64,000 bases of DNA from Acidimicrobiia bacterium (GTDB taxonomy: Bacteria > Actinomycetota > Acidimicrobiia > Spongiisociales > UBA4744): positions 16,261 through 80,260 of the forward strand of contig JAOTUY010000003.1 in NCBI GenBank assembly GCA_029863625.1. Reading direction: 5' to 3'. The notes beneath the pieces were generated by a model. It searched no databases and was not told where the DNA came from. It saw only the letters and a list, made by a program, of their open reading frames with translations. The position numbers were made by a program, and so were the translations under genes. Every line of letters begins with the position of its first letter. The first letter of the stretch is position 1. Below, piece after piece: positions 3,269-47,119 of this stretch.

Positions 3269-4042
3269 GTGGAAACACCGAACCCTTTCCGGGTCGCCTG
3301 GTCGGTCTTCCGGGCGCGCCGCGCGGTTCCACCCGTCCCGCACGGGACGGCTAGCGCCGATCACACCGGTCTCGAACCCATCTTGCAGGCTCTCGCCGAA
3401 GGCGGAACGCCTGCGTTGGCGCTGGTTCAAGGTGACCTGGACCGGTATCTGGCGGGGCGCGCCGCTGTCGATCCGGCCACGCTCAACCGTTCTGAGGAGC
3501 TTGCATTTTGGCTGAATCTCTACAATGCCGGTGCTCTCAGCCTGGCCGCACAGGCGTTCGCCGAGGGTGCCGAGTCGGTCCTTCGCGTTCCCGGTGGGTT
3601 CGCCGCGGAATTGTTTGACATCGCCACAGAGCAGCTGTCACTCGATGCCATCGAGCACGGCAAGATCAGACGCTTCGGCGACCCGCGCATTCATGCCGCT
3701 CTTGTCTGTGGATCCGTTTCGTGTCCGACTCTGCGCTACGAGCCGTATCGCGGCGACCGGCTCGGAGCCCAACTCGACGATCAAATGAGGCGATTTCTCA
3801 CCGGCGGCGGGGCCCACGTCGATAGGGACACCCGGACGGTGCATCTCTCGCGCGTTTTCCTCTGGTATGGAGGTGACTTCACCCGTCCGCACCGCATGCC
3901 CACCTGGATTCCTTCTCGACGCCCCACGCTGGTGCGTGCCCTGCTTCCGTGGCTGGACGAAGCCACAACCTGGGTGGCGTCGGGCAAGACCACGGTCAGA
4001 TTCCAACCCTACGACTGGGGGCTGCGCTGTTCCGTGGGTTGA
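3269..4042 (+). CDS. DUF547 domain protein
   Basis: LAFWLNLYNA, LSLDAIEHGKIR, DPRIHAALVCGSVSCPTL and LSRVFLWYGGDF are DUF547 motifs. Start uncertain (3218 or 3269). Confidence 0.88.
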   Translation: METPNPFRVAWSVFRARRAVPPVPHGTASADHTGLEPILQALAEGGTPALALVQGDLDRYLAGRAAVDPATLNRSEELAFWLNLYNAGALSLAAQAFAEGAESVLRVPGGFAAELFDIATEQLSLDAIEHGKIRRFGDPRIHAALVCGSVSCPTLRYEPYRGDRLGAQLDDQMRRFLTGGGAHVDRDTRTVHLSRVFLWYGGDFTRPHRMPTWIPSRRPTLVRALLPWLDEATTWVASGKTTVRFQPYDWGLRCSVG

Positions 4043-4599
4043 GCCGAACGGAGCCCGATCAACAGCGCGCCGATCGCCATCACCGCGGCCGCCATGTCGA
4101 AGGGTAGGACATACCGCCACAGATCCGGACTTGACACCGACCAGCCGCCGTCCGCTCCAAAACCCACAACGTCGAGGTAACGCCAGATGGACCAGATGCA
4201 GATCACAGCCAGGATGAAGCCGGCCAGCAAGGCCCACCGGTCGCCGGCCATCAATCGGACGCCGAGTATCAACCCGGCGGTGGCCCAGGCGATGTCGAGT
4301 GCTGAGAGCAGCTGAAGGAATTGCAGCGACGGCTGGTATCCGAGGGCCGCAGACGAGGCCAGGGTGACGAGAGCCACGACGCCGGTGGTCAGCGCGACGA
4401 TGGACGCCATCGCTCCGAAGCGCTGCCAGAACCAACTGCCGCCCATGCCAACAAACCAGGGCCCATCGGTGAATCGGGCCAGGTCGAGTGCTACGCCCAA
4501 CCCGAATGTGACGATTGCCCCGAGATGGAACGTGACCACCGGGAGCAAACGGTCTGGGTCGGCTTCCGGAAGGACCACCAGCAGCAGCGAAACGAGCAA
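4009..4599 (-). CDS. Hypothetical multi-pass membrane protein
   Basis: About 6 hydrophobic segments. TTG start without a clear SD, so the start is uncertain. 3' end overlaps the DUF547 gene by 34 nt. Confidence 0.65.
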   Translation of the reverse strand: MLVSLLLVVLPEADPDRLLPVVTFHLGAIVTFGLGVALDLARFTDGPWFVGMGGSWFWQRFGAMASIVALTTGVVALVTLASSAALGYQPSLQFLQLLSALDIAWATAGLILGVRLMAGDRWALLAGFILAVICIWSIWRYLDVVGFGADGGWSVSSPDLWRYVLPFDMAAAVMAIGALLIGLRSAQPTEQRSPQS

Positions 4600-4675: not shown

Positions 4676-4758
4676 CAGTTTTCAGTCGGTCGGCCTACGG
4701 CCGAGCTCTCAGTGGTCAGTTGGTGGTGCTAGAAAGTGATGACTGATGACTGATGACT
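4676..4758. repeat. Intergenic repeat family 1 (heptamer arms around GGCCTNCGGCC hairpin)
   Basis: CAGTTTTCAGTCGGTCGGCCTACGGCCG...TCAGTGGTCAG...(TGATGAC)x3 at 4737-4757; homologous to copies at 10952, 44802 and 47036. Confidence 0.85.
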
Positions 4759-4766
4759 TCTCGTCC

Positions 4767-10951: not shown

Positions 10952-11044
10952 AGTTATCAGTAATCGGTCATCAGTTGTCAGTTTCGACGGTTCGCTGATG
11001 ACTGAAAGGACGGCCGCAGGCCGACCGACTGATCACTCATGATT
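10952..11044. repeat. Intergenic repeat family 1 (reverse orientation)
   Basis: Reverse complement reads TCAGTCGGTCGGCCTGCGGCCGTCCTTTCAGTCATCAG, with outer heptamer arms (AGTTATC AGTAATC GGTCATC AGTTGTC on the + strand). Confidence 0.85.
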
Positions 11045-14830: not shown

Positions 14831-16029
14831 CCCGACTCCTGTTTCGGGGCGGTAGCGTCTTCGACGCAACCGATGCGCCTCAAGCCTCCGCCGATGTGGT
14901 TGTCGAGGACGGACGGATTCTCGAGGTTGGAACCGGCCTCGACGGGGACCAGGCCATCGACTGCACCGGGCTCCACCTCTTGCCGGGTCTCTTCGATTCC
15001 CACGTCCACGTGATGCTCAGTCATATCGACATGTGGAGACTGGTCCAGACTCCCTTTTCCTACCGGTTCTTCGAGGCAGCCGGGAACCTGGCGGCGACGC
15101 TCCGGGCCGGGATCACCACGGTGCGGGACGCAGGTGGGGCCGACCTGGGGATAAAACAGGCAGTCGAAGACGGCCTCATTGATGGTCCGCGAATGCAGAT
15201 CTCCTTGAAGATGCTTTCCCAGACCGGCGGTCATGGTGACGGATGGATGGCGTCCGGCGGCACCCTGGCGCTGTTTCCGTCGTATCCGGGGATGCCGGAA
15301 ACCATCGTCGACGGTGTTGAAGAGATGCGACGCAAGGTGAGAGAGCTGATCCGGGACGGTGCGGATGTGATCAAGGTAGCTACTTCCGGAGGCGTCCTGT
15401 CACCGCGGGATGAGCCGACCCATGCTCACTTCCGGCTGGCCGAGCTCGAGGTCCTGGTCGAGGAGGCCACCGCGGCAGGGATCGGTGTTATGGCGCACGC
15501 TCAGGCCACGGTGGGGATCAAGAACGCCATCCAGGCCGGCATCCGCTCCATCGATCACGGGATCTACCTGGACGACCAGGCGATTGAGATGATGCTGGAG
15601 CGAGGTACGTTCCTGGTGCCGACCCTGGTCGCTCCGACCGGCGTGTTGCGAGCCGCCGAAGCGGGCGCGCAGATACCGGAGACGTCGCTGGCTAAGGCGC
15701 GCGAGGTGATCGAGGTTCATCGAGACTCGTTCAACCGGGCCGTACAGGCCGGGGTCAAGATCGCGATGGGCACCGATACCGGCGTCACGCCGCACGGTGA
15801 GAACCTGGCTGAGTTAACTCTCATGGTCGAGGGCGGGATGACTCCGCACCGGGCTCTGGTCGCGACCACCCGCACCGCCGCCGAGCTGATGGGCCTCGAC
15901 AAAGAATTGGGAACCCTCGAGCCCGGCAAACGGGCAGATCTTGTTGTTGTAGATGGAGACCCGTTCGAGGTGGCCGAACTCCCGGAACGCATTACGCAAG
16001 TGTGGAAGGACGGCCACCGGGTCGTGTAA
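14827..16029 (+). CDS. Metal-dependent amidohydrolase (Xaa-Pro dipeptidase-like)
   Basis: PGLFDSHVH, GITTVRDAGG, GADVIKVATSGG, AHA, SIDHG, MGTDTG, GKRADLVVV. Confidence 0.9.
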   Translation: MTRLLFRGGSVFDATDAPQASADVVVEDGRILEVGTGLDGDQAIDCTGLHLLPGLFDSHVHVMLSHIDMWRLVQTPFSYRFFEAAGNLAATLRAGITTVRDAGGADLGIKQAVEDGLIDGPRMQISLKMLSQTGGHGDGWMASGGTLALFPSYPGMPETIVDGVEEMRRKVRELIRDGADVIKVATSGGVLSPRDEPTHAHFRLAELEVLVEEATAAGIGVMAHAQATVGIKNAIQAGIRSIDHGIYLDDQAIEMMLERGTFLVPTLVAPTGVLRAAEAGAQIPETSLAKAREVIEVHRDSFNRAVQAGVKIAMGTDTGVTPHGENLAELTLMVEGGMTPHRALVATTRTAAELMGLDKELGTLEPGKRADLVVVDGDPFEVAELPERITQVWKDGHRVV

Positions 16030-27719: not shown

Positions 27720-27791
27720 CGTATTTCGTACTTCCTACCTCGTACTGGCAAGTACGAAGTACGGGTTGGCCGGTCATCGACCGGCCAACCC
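27720..27791. repeat. Inverted heptamer arms followed by a 13-bp perfect hairpin (probable bidirectional terminator)
   Basis: CGTATTT CGTACTT CCTACCT CGTACT ... AAGTACG AAGTACG, then GGGTTGGCCGGTC-ATC-GACCGGCCAACCC (27763-27791), between convergent genes. Confidence 0.75.
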
Positions 27792-40423: not shown

Positions 40424-41658
40424 TGGCCGTCCGGACCGAGACCGCCTCCCTTCGAAGACCGAGCCCGGCGCTGCGCTGGGTGCGCGAGAACCTGTTCAAC
40501 AATTGGTACAACTCGGTGCTTACGGTCATCTTCGGGGCGCTCTTCATCTGGGTCGGGTTCAGCCTGCTTCGCTGGGTTTTCTTCCGAGCCGAATGGGAGA
40601 TCGTCAGAGTCAACCTCACTTTGTTCATGGTCGGTCGATTTCCTCGGGACGAATTGGCCAGAATCTGGGTGAGCAACTACATGATCGTCGGAGCCATCGG
40701 CCTCATGGCCGGTGCGGCCACGGCTTCGGCTGCCGCCGCTGCCAAGGAAGCCGGTCTTCCCTTCGTTCAGTCGAAACTGCAAGACTTGATTCAGCGGTTC
40801 TGGCCGGTGCTCCTGCTGGTCGCTGCTCTGCTCCAGTTCAGCCGCACTTGGACACCCACGATCATGACGGTGGGGATGGTCGTCATCGGCGTTGCCGCCC
40901 GCTTCGCGGGTTTGCACCTACCCCGAGTGATCCGCCGGTATGCGTGGGTGCTCGTGGCTCTGCTCCTGATCGGTGCGTATGGAGCCCTGGTGTGGTTCGG
41001 AGGCTTTGGGTGGGATGACTGGGGTGGTCTCCACCTGACCCTATTCGTGACGGTGGCCGGGATCATCCTGGCGTTCCCTTTGGGTTTGTTGTTTGCTCTG
41101 GGCCGCCGATCGACCCTTCCGCTGGTGCGATTGTTGTCCGTCACCTACATCGAGTTCATTCGGGGCGTACCCTTGATCACCCTGCTGCTCATGGGCGCCT
41201 TCGCTCTGAAGTTCCTGCTGCCCCCGGGGATGGACCTCAGTCTGGTGTCTCGGCTGGTCGTGGCGATCATGCTCTTCACCGCCGCTTATGTGGCAGAGAA
41301 TGTCCGAGGAGGGTTGCAGGCGGTACCAAAAGGCCAGACCGAAGCAGGGCAGGCGCTCGGGTTGCCCGCCTGGAAGGTAATGCGCCTCATCGTGCTGCCT
41401 CAGGCGCTGCGGGCGGTGATCCCGGCCATGGTGGGCCAGTTCATCAGCCTTTTCAAGGACACGTCTCTGCTGGTGGTCGTCGGTGTCTTTGAGTTGCTGG
41501 CCGTTTCGTCGATCGCCAACAACCAGCCCGAGTTCCTCGGAAAAGGTCTGGCAGAAGTGACCTTGCCATTTGTGGCGGTGATTTACTGGGTTGGTGCGTA
41601 CACGATGTCGAGAGAGAGCCGGCGACTCGAGAAGAAACTCGGAGTAGGAGAGCGATGA
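40423..41658 (+). CDS. aapM: General L-amino acid ABC transporter permease
   Basis: Start re-called at MAVRTET (overlapping the upstream stop); [40 protein letters not shown]. Confidence 0.9.
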
Positions 41659-42428
41659 CTCAAAACAACGTATATTCCGACGCAACTCAGGCGAGGGGTG
41701 ACGTCATTATCGAGGTGCAGGGCGTGGACAAGTTCTTCGGTGACTTCCAGGCGCTCAAGAACATCAACCTGAATGTCGGGAAACAGGAAGTAATCGTCGT
41801 GATGGGCCCCTCCGGCTCCGGAAAGTCGACGCTCATCCGCTGCATCAATCGCCTCGAGAAACATGACGCCGGTCGGATCGTGGTCGACGGGGTGGAACTC
41901 TCCGACGACATCCGCAACATTCAGGAGATCCGCCGTGAGACGGGCATGGTGTTTCAACAGTTCAATCTATTTCCGCACTTAACGGTATTGGACAACATCA
42001 CCCTCGCCCCCCGCCAAGTGCGCAACATGCCCAAGAACGAGGCCGAGGAGATGGCCATGCTGCAGCTCGAGCGGGTGAAGATCCCCGAGCAGGCGCATAA
42101 GTATCCGGGCCAGCTGTCGGGTGGTCAGCAGCAACGGGTGGCCATCGCCCGATCGCTGGCGATGCAGCCCAAAGTGATGCTGTTCGATGAACCGACCTCA
42201 GCACTCGACCCGGAGATGATCAAAGAGGTGCTTGACGCCATGCAGGAGCTGGCGGAGTCGGGGATGACCATGATTGTGGTCACTCACGAGATGGGCTTCG
42301 CCCGAGCGGTGGCCAACCGGGTGCTCTTCATGGCCGACGGCGAGGTCGTTGAGGTCGGCACCCCCCAGCACATCTTCGAGAACCCGGACGAGGACCGGAC
42401 GAAGCTGTTCCTGAGCCAGATCCTCTGA
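41655..42428 (+). CDS. aapP: General L-amino acid ABC transporter ATP-binding protein
   Basis: [47 protein letters not shown]. Confidence 0.92.
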
Positions 42429-42449
42429 GCGAAGCTCAGAGGATCTGGA

Positions 42450-42498
42450 GTACTCAGTACTCAGTGCCCAGTACCCAGTACTCGGTACCCAGTACCGG
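42450..42498. repeat. Heptamer tandem array, left arm (GTAC[T/C]CA x7)
   Basis: GTACTCA GTACTCA GTGCCCA GTACCCA GTACTCG GTACCCA GTACCGG; preceded by hairpin TCCTCTGAGC-GAA-GCTCAGAGGA (42421-42443). Confidence 0.9.
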
Positions 42499-42525
42499 GA
42501 ATCCGGGTAGTCAGTATCTGCTGTT

Positions 42526-42879
42526 TCAGCTAGTCAGGCTTCGTTCGAGACCATGCAACATTGCTCTGATGTCCCCCAGTTCCTGCAGGAGTTGTCGGTG
42601 CTGGTCGGAAGCAAGGAAGGAGAGGTCGAGGCTCAGGTCGAGCTGGGTTTCGACTTCGCAAGCCGATCCGATAGCCATTCTGATGAAGCGTCCAAAGTCG
42701 CCCGGGCTTGCTCTTCCGGCTCCTTCGGCGATGTTCGATGGGATGGATACGGCGGCTCGCCGGAGCTGTCTCGTCAGGCCGAATCTCTCGTCTGCTGGGA
42801 AGTCATAGGTGGCGTTGTAGATCTCGAGTACGAGATGTCGGCTTCGTCTCCACACATCCAGTCGGCGGTAGTCATGCAT
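42526..42879 (-). CDS. Four-helix-bundle protein (23S rRNA-IVS / S23 / Avd-like family)
   Basis: YRRLDVWRRS and FPADERFGLTRQLRRAAVSIPSNIAEG are hallmark motifs, plus AIGSACEVETQL. Confidence 0.93.
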   Translation of the reverse strand: MHDYRRLDVWRRSRHLVLEIYNATYDFPADERFGLTRQLRRAAVSIPSNIAEGAGRASPGDFGRFIRMAIGSACEVETQLDLSLDLSFLASDQHRQLLQELGDIRAMLHGLERSLTS

Positions 42880-42929
42880 GTCATGTGACTATCACAACTC
42901 GACTCTGATCAGAAGTGCCCTGTCGCTCA

Positions 42930-42990
42930 GTACTGAGTACTAGGTACTGAGTACTAGGTACTGAGTACTAGGTACTGAGTACCAGGTACA
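42930..42990. repeat. Heptamer tandem array, right arm, inverted relative to the left arm
   Basis: (GTACTGA GTACTAG)x3 GTACTGA GTACCAG GTACA; TGAGTAC is the reverse complement of left-arm GTACTCA. Confidence 0.92.
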
Positions 42991-42993
42991 TTT

Positions 42994-43530
42994 CTAGCCG
43001 CTTCCCGTCAGGCTTGCCGCCACCATTCTCGCCTCGTCGGGTCCGGTGGGGGGATAGAACACCAGGTAGTACAGGTCGCATCGATCGAGGCCCTCGTACC
43101 AGGCGACTCCCCAGATCCCTTCACCGAGATCGCCCAGAGCCGCCTTTTCTCCCCGGATTTCGATCGTTTCCGGTGTGTTGATCCAGCGAATGGGAGGTAG
43201 TGCTCCCCGCACCATTGCCAGAACCGGGATCCCGGCTTCGTCCGTCCAGCCGGTGACAATCGTTCCGGGTTGCAGAGTGAACTCGTCGAGGGGTACCGCC
43301 GATACGTCGGGTTGGTCATCGGTCACCCGATCGGGCAGGACCGTCGGCAGAAAGGTCGGAGGGTCACAAGTCTCGGGAGCCGGTTCGGTCGTGAGTGTTG
43401 TGGTGGGGATGGTCGTAGGCGTGATGGGGATCGTGATGGTGGATGCTGTTGTGGTGGAATCGCCTGCGCTGGTGCAGGCGGCCAGCACCAGCGTCATGGC
43501 TATGGCGAGCAGAGACCGATGGGTGAACAC
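42994..43530 (-). CDS. Hypothetical lipoprotein with Thr-rich linker
   Basis: Lipobox LAAC, Thr/Pro-rich segment, two further Cys in the globular part. Confidence 0.8.
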   Translation of the reverse strand: MFTHRSLLAIAMTLVLAACTSAGDSTTTASTITIPITPTTIPTTTLTTEPAPETCDPPTFLPTVLPDRVTDDQPDVSAVPLDEFTLQPGTIVTGWTDEAGIPVLAMVRGALPPIRWINTPETIEIRGEKAALGDLGEGIWGVAWYEGLDRCDLYYLVFYPPTGPDEARMVAASLTGSG

Positions 43531-43643
43531 GGAGGGCAGCGTACCCGACGGAGGCCCGACGTCCGTGAACCTCGTGGCCAGACCGCCCGGGCGGTGGTGG
43601 TACCGTGATTCGGCTCTGCACGGACTAAATAAACGAGGACGTC

Positions 43644-44786
43644 ATGGATCTGAAAGCTCGCGCCGATAAGGCCTTTACGGACGTTGAAACCGCACTGGCC
43701 GGCATCAATCGGTGGATGTACGACAACCCGGAGATCGGATTCGAGGAGCACAACACCTCGGCGCGGCTGGCGAGTTTCCTCGCCGAGCACGGGTTTGCGG
43801 TCGAGTACCCGGCGTACGGCCTGGAGACGGCCTTTGTCGCCCGGGTTGGGTCCGGAGGACCCGAGGTGATCATATGCGCCGAGATGGATGCGCTCCCCAC
43901 CGTCGGTCACGCCTGCGGGCACAACATCATTGCCACGTCCGCGCTCGGTGCCGGCGTGGCCCTAGCTCCTTTGGCAAATGAGCTGGGAATCAGGCTGACG
44001 GTGCTCGGCACACCCGCCGAGGAGAAGATGGGGGGCAAGGTTGATCTCATCAATGCCGGTGCCTTCACCGGAGCCGCCGCCTCGATGATGGTGCACCCTT
44101 CCAACAGCGATGTCGTCGATCCCAATGTGCTGGGGGTCCGGCACATCGACCTAGAGTTCCACGGCAAGGACTCGCACGCAGCTTTCGCCCCTCAGCTCGG
44201 TATCAACGCCTTGGATGCCTTCGTCCAGGCCTACGTCAACGTGTCGATGCTACGCCAGGCTCTCTACCCGACCGACAAGATCCACTCGATCATCACCCAC
44301 GGCGGGGATGCACCAAACATCATTCCTAGCTACACCCGCTCTTCATGGTACGTGCGGGCCGCGACGCGAGAGCGGATGGAGGAACTCTACGACCGGGTGA
44401 CGGCCTGTTTCGAATCCGCCGCCACAGCCACCGGGTGCACATGGAACGTGGAAACCATCGGGCATCCGTTCGAGGACATGGTGAGCAACCCAGTCATGGT
44501 CGAGCTGTTTGCGGCCAATGCCGCGGCCCTGGGGCGGACCATGGGTCGGGGGGCCGATGAAGAACCGGGGGCGGCCGGGTCGACCGACATGGGAAATGTG
44601 AGCCAGGTCGTACCCTCGATCCATCCCTTCCTGACCATCAATCCCGGTGATGCCGTCAATCATCAACCCGAGTTTGCCGCCCATACCGTGACCGCCGATG
44701 GTGAACAGGCCATTCGTGACGGCGCCCTGGCGATGGCCTGGACGGTGATCGACCTGGCAGTTGCAGACCGGTGGGGAGAGCTGTAG
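43644..44786 (+). CDS. M20 family amidohydrolase
   Basis: NPEIGFEEH, AEMDALP, HACGHN, GTPAEE, GSTDMGNVS. Confidence 0.92.
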   Translation: MDLKARADKAFTDVETALAGINRWMYDNPEIGFEEHNTSARLASFLAEHGFAVEYPAYGLETAFVARVGSGGPEVIICAEMDALPTVGHACGHNIIATSALGAGVALAPLANELGIRLTVLGTPAEEKMGGKVDLINAGAFTGAAASMMVHPSNSDVVDPNVLGVRHIDLEFHGKDSHAAFAPQLGINALDAFVQAYVNVSMLRQALYPTDKIHSIITHGGDAPNIIPSYTRSSWYVRAATRERMEELYDRVTACFESAATATGCTWNVETIGHPFEDMVSNPVMVELFAANAAALGRTMGRGADEEPGAAGSTDMGNVSQVVPSIHPFLTINPGDAVNHQPEFAAHTVTADGEQAIRDGALAMAWTVIDLAVADRWGEL

Positions 44787-44801
44787 CCGAGTGACGCTCC
44801 G

Positions 44802-44908
44802 CAGTTGTCAGTTATCAGTCGGATGGCCTGCGGCCGCCCTTTCACTCGTCAGTTCGAGCAAAGAACCGGGTCCCCACAGTGGGGACCCGGCGGTGATGAC
44901 TGATGACT
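44802..44908. repeat. Intergenic repeat family 1 with an extra internal 11-bp hairpin
   Basis: CAGTTGTCAGTTATCAGTCGGATGGCCTGCGGCCGCCCTTTCACTCGTCAG...CCGGGTCCCCA-CAG-TGGGGACCCGG...TGATGACTGATGACT. Confidence 0.85.
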
Positions 44909-44915
44909 CTTCTCA

Positions 44916-47016: not shown

Positions 47017-47035
47017 GGGCGAGCTGATGCTCGTG

Positions 47036-47110
47036 GTTGTCAGTTATCAGTCTCCCGGCCTCCGGCCGGGCTTCCAGTCGTCAGTCTTGCTGACTACTGA
47101 TTACTGACAG
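47036..47110. repeat. Intergenic repeat family 1
   Basis: GTTGTCAGTTATCAGTCTCCCGGCCTCCGGCCGGGCTTCCAGTCGTCAG...CTGACTACTGATTACTGAC, between convergent genes. Confidence 0.85.
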
Positions 47111-47119
47111 CTCGGGCTG

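Follow-up and report, generated by a model that had tools for sequence, protein, structure and literature searches.

Proteins of the four-helix-bundle family PF05635 were first seen inside ribosomal RNA (rRNA) intervening sequences, and Avd, which has a similar fold, is a pentamer that binds RNA in the particle of a diversity-generating retroelement (DGR). Short intergenic elements with inverted ends are also represented by the Correia repeat-enclosed elements of Neisseria, which fold in mRNA and are cut by ribonuclease III (RNase III), affecting neighbouring transcripts; these contain no gene, end in defined repeats accompanied by a TA target duplication and are present in hundreds of nearly identical copies. 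Among the 23S rRNA intervening sequences (IVS) that bear an open reading frame (ORF), as in Leptospira and Coxiella burnetii, the S23p IVS of C. burnetii folds into a 28-bp stem that RNase III cuts in the middle; its loop contains a PF05635 gene, and the number of its tandem heptamers differs from strain to strain (PMC4990558). Heptamer repeats in spacers have been described as short tandemly repeated repetitive (STRR) sequences in cyanobacteria, GGGAATC in Xanthomonas and GGGGAYT in Nostoc (PMC4692102), and as heptanucleotide elements in Geobacter (PMC2700814). Here we describe a PF05635 gene in a 64,000-nucleotide stretch of the assembly of an uncultured Acidimicrobiia bacterium (GCA_029863625.1, contig JAOTUY010000003.1; the whole stretch is hereafter the window), which lies outside any rRNA gene and has the layout [GTAC-core heptamer array]-[four-helix-bundle gene]-[inverted GTAC-core heptamer array]. 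This cassette is old, is vertically inherited and codes for a retained protein. We give about even credence to the reading as a whole, namely an old inherited cassette of the ORF-bearing 23S IVS design in the spacer between a lipoprotein gene and aapP, with a stem cut by RNase III and a protein that binds the arrays. The cassette and its two neighbours comprise the following features (window coordinates).

41655-42428, plus strand: ABC-transporter ATPase gene, aapP-like, convergent neighbour whose 3' end forms half of the 15-bp hairpin.
42416-42448, no strand assigned: perfect 15-bp hairpin CCAGATCCTCTGAGC-GAA-GCTCAGAGGATCTGG, in which 42416-42430 pairs with 42434-42448 around the loop GAA; adjoins the left arm.
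42449-42496, minus strand: 3' arm (relative to the gene), 7 heptamers, GTACYCA on the plus strand and TGRGTAC on the gene strand, found by Tandem Repeats Finder (TRF) and as an inverted pair.
42497-42525, minus strand: interior 3' spacer from stop codon to arm, AACAGCAGATACTGACTACCCGGATTCCCGG on the gene strand, conserved in L009-L016.
42526-42879, minus strand: four-helix-bundle gene, carried by the cassette as its cargo, 354 nt with the stop codon, 117 aa, PF05635 / TIGR02436.
42880-42929, minus strand: interior 5' spacer with the box TGTGATAGT (42888-42896), which is conserved in the clade and stops 8 nt short of the ATG.
42930-42989, minus strand: 5' arm (relative to the gene), 8 heptamers (GTACTGA/GTACTAG), found by TRF.
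42994-43530, minus strand: putative lipoprotein gene, 178 aa, signal peptide ending LAAC, upstream of and co-oriented with the four-helix-bundle gene, its stop codon 4 nt from the 5' arm.

With the ORF-bearing 23S IVS the cassette shares a PF05635 gene in the loop of a terminal-inverted-repeat stem, an element length of about 430-560 nt, arm heptamers of variable copy number and long vertical maintenance after an old acquisition. However, its site is an mRNA spacer flanked by a lipoprotein gene and the convergent aapP, not helix 9, 25 or 45 of 23S rRNA, and the cassette therefore lacks the defining feature of that class. The stem of about 46-50 bp consists entirely of heptamers and is longer than the Coxiella stem (28 bp); purifying selection acts on the ORF of the window, whereas that of Coxiella is reported to be decaying and untranslated (PMC4990558); and RNase III cleavage, which has been demonstrated in Coxiella, is a prediction for the window cassette. 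The intergenic heptamer repeats likewise consist of tandem 7-nt non-coding units near stop codons, typically 4-5 and variable in number (PMC4692102, PMC2700814), and the Geobacter alignments include inverted sets (PMC2700814), but no gene family is named there, whereas the window arrays bracket a PF05635 gene and have a clade-specific GTAC core. None of the gene-free state, the terminal repeats with TA duplication or the hundreds of copies that characterise Correia elements was seen at the window cassette. As regards the features of miniature inverted-repeat transposable elements (MITEs), no direct repeat or target duplication was seen around its arms, a single copy is present in the 64-kb window and gene-less sites were seen only in other species. 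Family members annotated as 23S_rRNA_IVP in cas operons resemble it in being wedged between unrelated co-transcribed genes and in carrying the RxxxSxxxNxxE motif quoted for that family, but no flanking repeats are described for them and no CRISPR-Cas genes lie near the window cassette (PMC3936711). A full-text literature search for the combination of a PF05635 gene with heptamer arms matched only the Coxiella paper (PMC4990558) and found no published cassette outside rRNA.

An initial annotation of the window, made from its sequence alone, had described seven- and eight-unit heptamer arrays and a perfect hairpin with a GAA loop outside any rRNA gene, and inspection of the sequence, TRF and an inverted-pair search place all of them where it had put them. 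No Rfam family, rRNA included, reached its gathering score anywhere in the window, and the flanks are protein-coding. Sub-threshold Rfam matches to microRNA families on the right arm were discarded, as they reflect the self-complementarity of the arm. On the plus strand the left array reads GTACTCA GTACTCA GTGCCCA GTACCCA GTACTCG GTACCCA GTACCGG (82% unit identity), while TRF resolves the right array as a 14-mer, GTACTGAGTACTAG, repeated 4.3 times with an identity (97%) that points to recent expansion. The best inverted pair joins 42450-42495 with 42937-42982 (46 nt, 85% complementary, 441 nt apart). The pattern GTACNNNGTACNNNGTAC, which is three GTAC at 7-nt spacing, occurs 13 times in the window when at most one mismatch is allowed (0.04 expected), with 12 of the matches inside the arms.

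The long stem of about 50 bp that the annotation had proposed, with the whole gene in its loop, is also predicted by folding: RNA minimum-energy folds of 42410-43000 close the arms into a single long stem on both strands, with z-scores of -6.2 for the gene-sense strand and -7.6 for the opposite strand and none of 100 shuffles as stable. Its description of a self-contained stem-loop cassette between the convergent aapP and the lipoprotein gene thus agrees with the arrangement found.

The hairpin at the outer edge is built partly from coding sequence, its left half being the last codons and the stop codon (42426-42428) of aapP. Orthologues keep its pairing through a compensatory change: where the final Ile codon of aapP has changed synonymously (ATC>ATT), the non-coding half has G>A at the partner position. 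The three loop nucleotides of L008 are those of the reverse complement (GAA instead of TTC), as would be expected from a hairpin-mediated flip. From its position, this hairpin is likely a bidirectional 3'-end or terminator structure forming the outer cassette boundary; it has no T-run and is not called by a consensus terminator scan of 42300-43700.

At the other end of the gene, the 5' spacer (42880-42929) holds no Shine-Dalgarno sequence. The box in this spacer, read as TGTGATAG(T/G) or CGTGATA(G/T), is found by eye alignment at a fixed spacing of 8-9 nt in the window, L010, L013, L019, L103 and L106, with the variants TGCGATAGT in L008 and TGTGGTAGT in L022. A consensus promoter scan of 42300-43700 gave no match, so that TGTGATAGT is established only as a conserved motif; an extended -10 element, serving a leaderless or short-leader mRNA, is a possible role for it. 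A search for a shared upstream motif across 34 distant homologues returned just a weak purine-rich, Shine-Dalgarno-like signal.

The assignment of the encoded protein to the fold of Avd and the 23S IVS proteins, likewise made in the initial annotation, is upheld by both sequence and structure comparison. The protein matches PF05635 (E = 4e-36, 123.8 bits vs a cut-off of 33.8) and TIGR02436 (E = 6.5e-35, 119.6 bits vs a cut-off of 24), and phmmer finds the Protein Data Bank entry 2GSC (XCC0516) at E = 2e-25. An AlphaFold2 (AF2) model built from a 36-sequence alignment has four helices and a predicted local distance difference test (pLDDT) score of 96, and Foldseek aligns it with template modelling (TM) scores of 0.94 to 2GSC and about 0.8 to 2RLD. 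The nucleic-acid-binding pentamer Avd (4DWL; 8UB7 for the DGR particle) shares this four-helix-bundle fold at a TM score of about 0.8 but only 6% sequence identity. All four residues of the RxxxSxxxNxxE motif (R41, S45, N49 and E52) are invariant across the 36 sequences. The entries 2GSC and 2RLD have five chains each, and by analogy with these and with Avd the window protein is probably a pentamer. A role in a DGR is ruled out by the lack of a reverse transcriptase among the called genes within about 3-4 kb, where we find Band_7, M20 peptidase, lipoprotein, ABC ATPase and permease genes, and of any template- or variable-repeat-like sequence in the cassette or its flanks. No PADLOC match indicates a role in a defence system, and the lipoprotein of 42994-43530 matched no Pfam or NCBIfam family.

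The inheritance of the cassette was followed through a series of orthologues. An identical protein is encoded on four other contigs with the same neighbours, and these match the window base for base except for one contig of the same species, L003, which equals the window minus exactly one 14-nt unit of the 5' arm. Homologues from 91% down to 61% protein identity all lie at the aapP 3' end but one, mostly directly after the lipoprotein gene. Those at this site are listed below with their protein identity.

L009-L012: 91% in tblastn (89% when the shorter called product is compared), same junction of lipoprotein gene and aapP, 5' arm absent, 3' arm of about 5 units, intact ORF with a GTG start.
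L008: 87%, same junction, arms of about 4+4 units.
L013-L016: 81%, same junction, arms of about 3+3 units.
L017: 69%, after the lipoprotein gene, with an AhpC/TSA-like gene between cassette and aapP, 4+4 units.
L019: 69%, same junction, 4+3 units.
L022: 68%, same junction, 4+4 units.
L105: 61%, same junction, short arms with about 3 GTAC/GTAT-core units upstream and 2 downstream.
L106: 61%, without the lipoprotein gene, cassette between an M20 gene and aapP, 4 units upstream and about 2 downstream.

Across these orthologues the 3' arm has 2-5 units and the 5' arm 0-4, with the GTAC core and the 7-nt period kept throughout. The arms thus behave as microsatellites, ranging from 0 to 8 units with one 14-nt unit polymorphic within a species, and the window genome has the longest arms of the series (46-50 bp), which the recent expansion suggested for its 14-mer would explain. 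Synonymous distances of the four-helix-bundle gene are 0.14 between L010 and L013, about 0.4 between the window and L008, L010 or L013, and at least 1 between the window and L017 or L019, and their order agrees with the tree of the neighbouring M20 peptidase. The ratio of nonsynonymous to synonymous divergence (dN/dS) is 0.08-0.28 in 10 of 11 comparisons and 0.49 in the remaining one, a very close pair, so that the gene is under purifying selection. It is because the distances match the M20 tree and dN/dS is low that we regard the cassette as old and vertically inherited and its protein as retained. L022, a 2.3-kb contig (GCA_033722995.1), is labelled Rhodothermales by one source, yet has the Acidimicrobiia-type order of lipoprotein, four-helix-bundle and aapP genes, and is probably a mis-binned contig rather than a case of horizontal transfer.

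The initial annotation had seen the cassette as inserted and possibly mobile, and had proposed a search for empty sites at the junction of aapP and the lipoprotein gene. Such sites exist: a search with the lipoprotein recovered three further relatives, L005, L006 and L007, all without the gene. In L005 only 4 bp separate the two stop codons and aapP is truncated; in L007 synteny with aapP is broken and the cassette is missing; and L006 lacks the gene but retains a small hairpin (GTACCAA GTACCAA ... CCATCTGG ... GTACTGG GTACTAG). The motif CCATCTGG and an exact 14-mer, GTACTGGGTACTAG, of L006 match the junction between the interior and the 3' arm of L017 (CCATTTGG GTACTGG GTACTAG), for which reason L006 looks like a cassette with its interior deleted. 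In the M20 tree the three taxa without the gene are all placed among filled ones, with L007 in a clade with L008, L010 and L013 (support 97/95), L005 as the nearest neighbour of the window and the armed L017 and L019 beyond a branch with 100/97 support. Given this nesting, on a tree rooted at its midpoint only, the gene-less sites read as losses, several losses being likelier, as the more parsimonious course, than repeated gains. The empty sites that the annotation had anticipated were therefore found, but they appear to be losses rather than sites that were never filled, and on this comparison the gene or the whole cassette is lost in some relatives. At 4541-4670 of L005 just the final ~125 bp of aapP adjoin the lipoprotein stop codon, and unrelated sequence follows, so that the truncated aapP of this relative may be either a rearrangement or a join made in assembling the metagenome-assembled genome (MAG).

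A mobile selfish cassette, in which gene and arms move as a unit into transcribed spacers by an unknown host-assisted or hairpin-dependent mechanism and the protein serves its own mobility, would account for some of these observations. Three relatives are gene-less at the junction, one with a clean 4-bp spacer; the PF05635 family occurs in very varied contexts and phyla; and Ralph and McClelland put forward mobility for rRNA intervening sequences (quoted in PMC4990558). Moreover, one of the 10 homologues looked up (61-89% identity) lies at another locus: L103/L104, a 65% homologue between a prepilin peptidase gene and pilMNO, has arms of the same class (GTATGAC / GTACGTY), with GTATGAC x4 (x8 in the second sample) on one side and GTACGCA ATACGTT GTACGTC GTACGTT on the other. 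This locus would fit an old relocation of gene and arms as a unit, and equally well the retention by a protein clade of a repeat type of its own. Against mobility, the position at the aapP 3' end is fixed from 91% to 61% identity in all homologues examined but one, with divergence congruent with that of the neighbouring gene, and the gene-less sites nest among filled taxa, one of them with cassette-derived sequence, and so look like deletions. The surrounding ~4 kb contain no recombinase or transposase, and the window shows neither a target duplication nor another copy; nor was a joined (empty) form seen in four metagenomes in which the organism is present. We consider a mobile cassette unlikely, and the insertion proposed in the annotation is not supported as a recent event; the cassette warns against taking every such element for a recent insertion.

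The link between gene and arms extends well beyond this clade. From 80 metagenome loci with 41-54% homologues, 77 were scored for the best inverted repeat between their 170-nt flanks, under a strict criterion (score >=14 with 7-nt periodicity) and a loose one (any inverted repeat scoring >=12). Strict arms were found at 38/77 homologues vs 0/70 neighbouring ORFs (Fisher 9e-14), which bears out the expectation that other family members would have heptamer inverted arms, and inverted repeats scoring >=12 at 64/77 vs 3/70. The controls originally numbered 71, with 1 strict and 4 loose matches, and the strict match was removed as it was itself a second PF05635 gene. Among armed loci the period is 7 in 39 and 8 in 13. 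Units vary widely across distant homologues (AGTGGCC, AGGATTG, CAGTTGT and others), while all relatives of at least 61% identity, including the pilus-operon L103/L104, have a GTAC or GTAY core and those at 41-54% have other units; similarity of unit and of protein are correlated (Spearman 0.15-0.17, permutation p = 5e-4). In the wider family the AG-rich arm precedes the other in 46/47 cases, and the GTAC clade shows either no such bias or the opposite one. A link of this order to gene orientation was rejected, since an inverted repeat reads alike on both strands and the bias is thus an intrinsic handedness.

Two further arrangements were observed in the family. Metagenome contig L088 has two diverged PF05635 genes about 800 nt apart (1298-1663 and 2501-2842), of which the upstream copy has AATGRAW heptamer arms and is too diverged for tblastn with the window protein. 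In Nostoc PCC 7120 an identical four-helix-bundle protein, WP_010994075.1, is encoded on two plasmids, at L108 (pCC7120alpha 3776-4126) and L109 (pCC7120gamma 15088-15438), both copies with about six CYTCTGC heptamers downstream and the upstream arm largely missing, apparently replaced by an IS element. The pCC7120gamma copy lies ~80 nt after an annotated ISL3 transposase gene, and near-identical unannotated sequence precedes the pCC7120alpha copy.

The genome is also rich in heptamer hairpins after gene ends, and the four-helix-bundle gene could merely sit in one of them, with no link between protein and repeat. Period-7 arrays number 17 in the window, where other periods not divisible by three give 1-8, gene-less heptamer stems follow gene ends at 27720-27762, 44803-44908 and 47035-47112, and the Band_7-M20 junction has heptamer stems of changing unit type in relatives. 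Such a coincidence of place is, however, very improbable in our judgement: the enrichment of arms around distant homologues from unrelated metagenomes, relative to neighbouring ORFs, is already inconsistent with it, and the GTAC core has stayed with the protein clade throughout, distinct from the commoner CAGT-type arrays of the same genome.

On the preferred reading, a mechanism can be proposed. Only 4 nt and no terminator separate the lipoprotein stop codon from the 5' arm, so that transcripts reading through from the lipoprotein gene would include the complete cassette, and its two arms would pair into a double-stranded stem of ~46-50 bp. RNase III would cut this heptamer stem, as it does in rRNA intervening sequences, and the cleavage would separate the four-helix-bundle message from the upstream mRNA, leaving structured 3' ends. 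The box TGTGATAGT, 8 nt before the start codon, may also yield a leaderless transcript without the 5' arm. By analogy with its relatives, heptamer-array nucleic acid would be the best candidate ligand of the protein, in the form of its own arms and of gene-less GTAC arrays such as 27720-27762.

Several observations weigh against this mechanism. Searches of sequencing runs recovered DNA metagenomes and a few RNA runs with 3% of the query words, and among the contigs no transcript of this organism was seen. L009-L012 have lost the whole 5' arm yet keep an intact gene (dN/dS 0.13 vs the window), so that the long stem is not required for the gene to persist. Because AGTACT is palindromic, either arm can fold on itself (-30 to -40 kcal/mol), and the long-range stem, the thermodynamic optimum in these models, is not kinetically assured, as self-folding may pre-empt it during transcription. 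The spacer patterns of the two arms are not mirrored, much of their complementarity deriving from the palindromic GTAC core, and arms are clearly better matched to their own partner than to the arms of other cassettes in only 4/9 cassettes. Finally, the correlation of unit with protein is weak, and co-inheritance or host GC content could explain it as well as recognition.

Some of these points would be expected if the arrays acted in DNA, as iterated operators for an oligomer of the four-helix-bundle protein in autoregulation or a local nucleoprotein structure, with complementarity a by-product of a unit with a palindromic core. Arrays of the palindromic GTAC core read alike on both strands on either side of the gene, the arm spacers are unmirrored and unit numbers change independently, the gene survives with a single arm, and L019 has a solo, non-inverted CGTACYT x4 array in a divergent M20-lipoprotein promoter region. 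In the wider family, however, the arms are inverted repeats of non-palindromic units with the handedness described above, and complementarity itself is conserved. The rRNA precedent acts at the RNA level (PMC4990558). None of the solved relatives of the window protein is known to bind double-stranded DNA sequence-specifically, which likewise counts against operators. We regard action in DNA as improbable, to about the same degree as mobility.

A broader proposal that goes beyond the preferred reading is that PF05635 oligomers and heptamer arrays form a cognate protein-repeat system, in which each clade recognises, and perhaps helps to create or maintain, its own 7-nt unit. The unit would here be GTACNNN, kept for the whole history of the clade and carried along in the move to the pilus operon, the excess of period-7 spacer arrays (STRR, GGGAATC) would represent targets or footprints, and the 23S IVS would be the special case noticed first. 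We put this forward tentatively, as somewhat less unlikely than either mobility or DNA operators but well short of probable. If it were true, 7-nt spacer arrays would be targets or footprints of the PF05635 family. The locus offers a natural series at one site, with arms of 0-8 units, a gene with one arm, arms without a gene and an empty junction, in which the protein is selected and the GTAC core constant. It bears on two thirty-year puzzles, the role of the '23S rRNA intervening-sequence protein' family and the richness of bacterial spacers in 7-base repeats, and makes two questions approachable: whether a heptamer stem is an RNase III site in mRNA, and whether a pentameric protein reads its own repeat unit.

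The heptamer background of the window and its relatives is itself diverse. GTAC-type arrays occur in the window only in the cassette and in a gene-less hairpin at 27720-27790 (CGTATTT CGTACTT CCTACCT CGTACT / AGTACGA AGTACGG), which starts just past a stop codon, precedes a GC-rich hairpin of 13 bp (fold z = -7.9) and has a unit resembling the arms of the L105 cassette. The elements at 44803-44908 and 47035-47112 (also 4676-4762 and 10952-10983) are gene-less and consist of a 15-bp CAGT-type heptamer stem enclosing small GGCC hairpins; the first two share an exact 17-mer, GTTGTCAGTTATCAGTC, which has 6 matches with at most 3 mismatches vs 0.08 expected. No remnants of further four-helix-bundle genes were found inside the gene-less heptamer stems. 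At the convergent Band_7-M20 junction (window 44787-44915; L005-L017) the stems keep their period and location but differ in unit sequence between relatives, the unit being of CAGT type in L007, L008 and L017, GGTGGAA in L013 and GAACCAA in L010, with no stem in L005 or L006. The divergent M20-lipoprotein spacer of L019-L021 (1741-1768) contains the solo, non-inverted array CGTACCT CGTACTT CGTACCT CGTACCG, and there is no array at this place in the window. In the metagenome runs X1-X9, summed contig depth over 42436-42503 and 42946-42979 is 10-40x that of the flanks, and loose contig ends of the arms run into other sequences (for example TAGGTACGAGGTACTAGG), from which it follows that GTAC-type heptamer arrays are common elsewhere in these sediment and soil communities.

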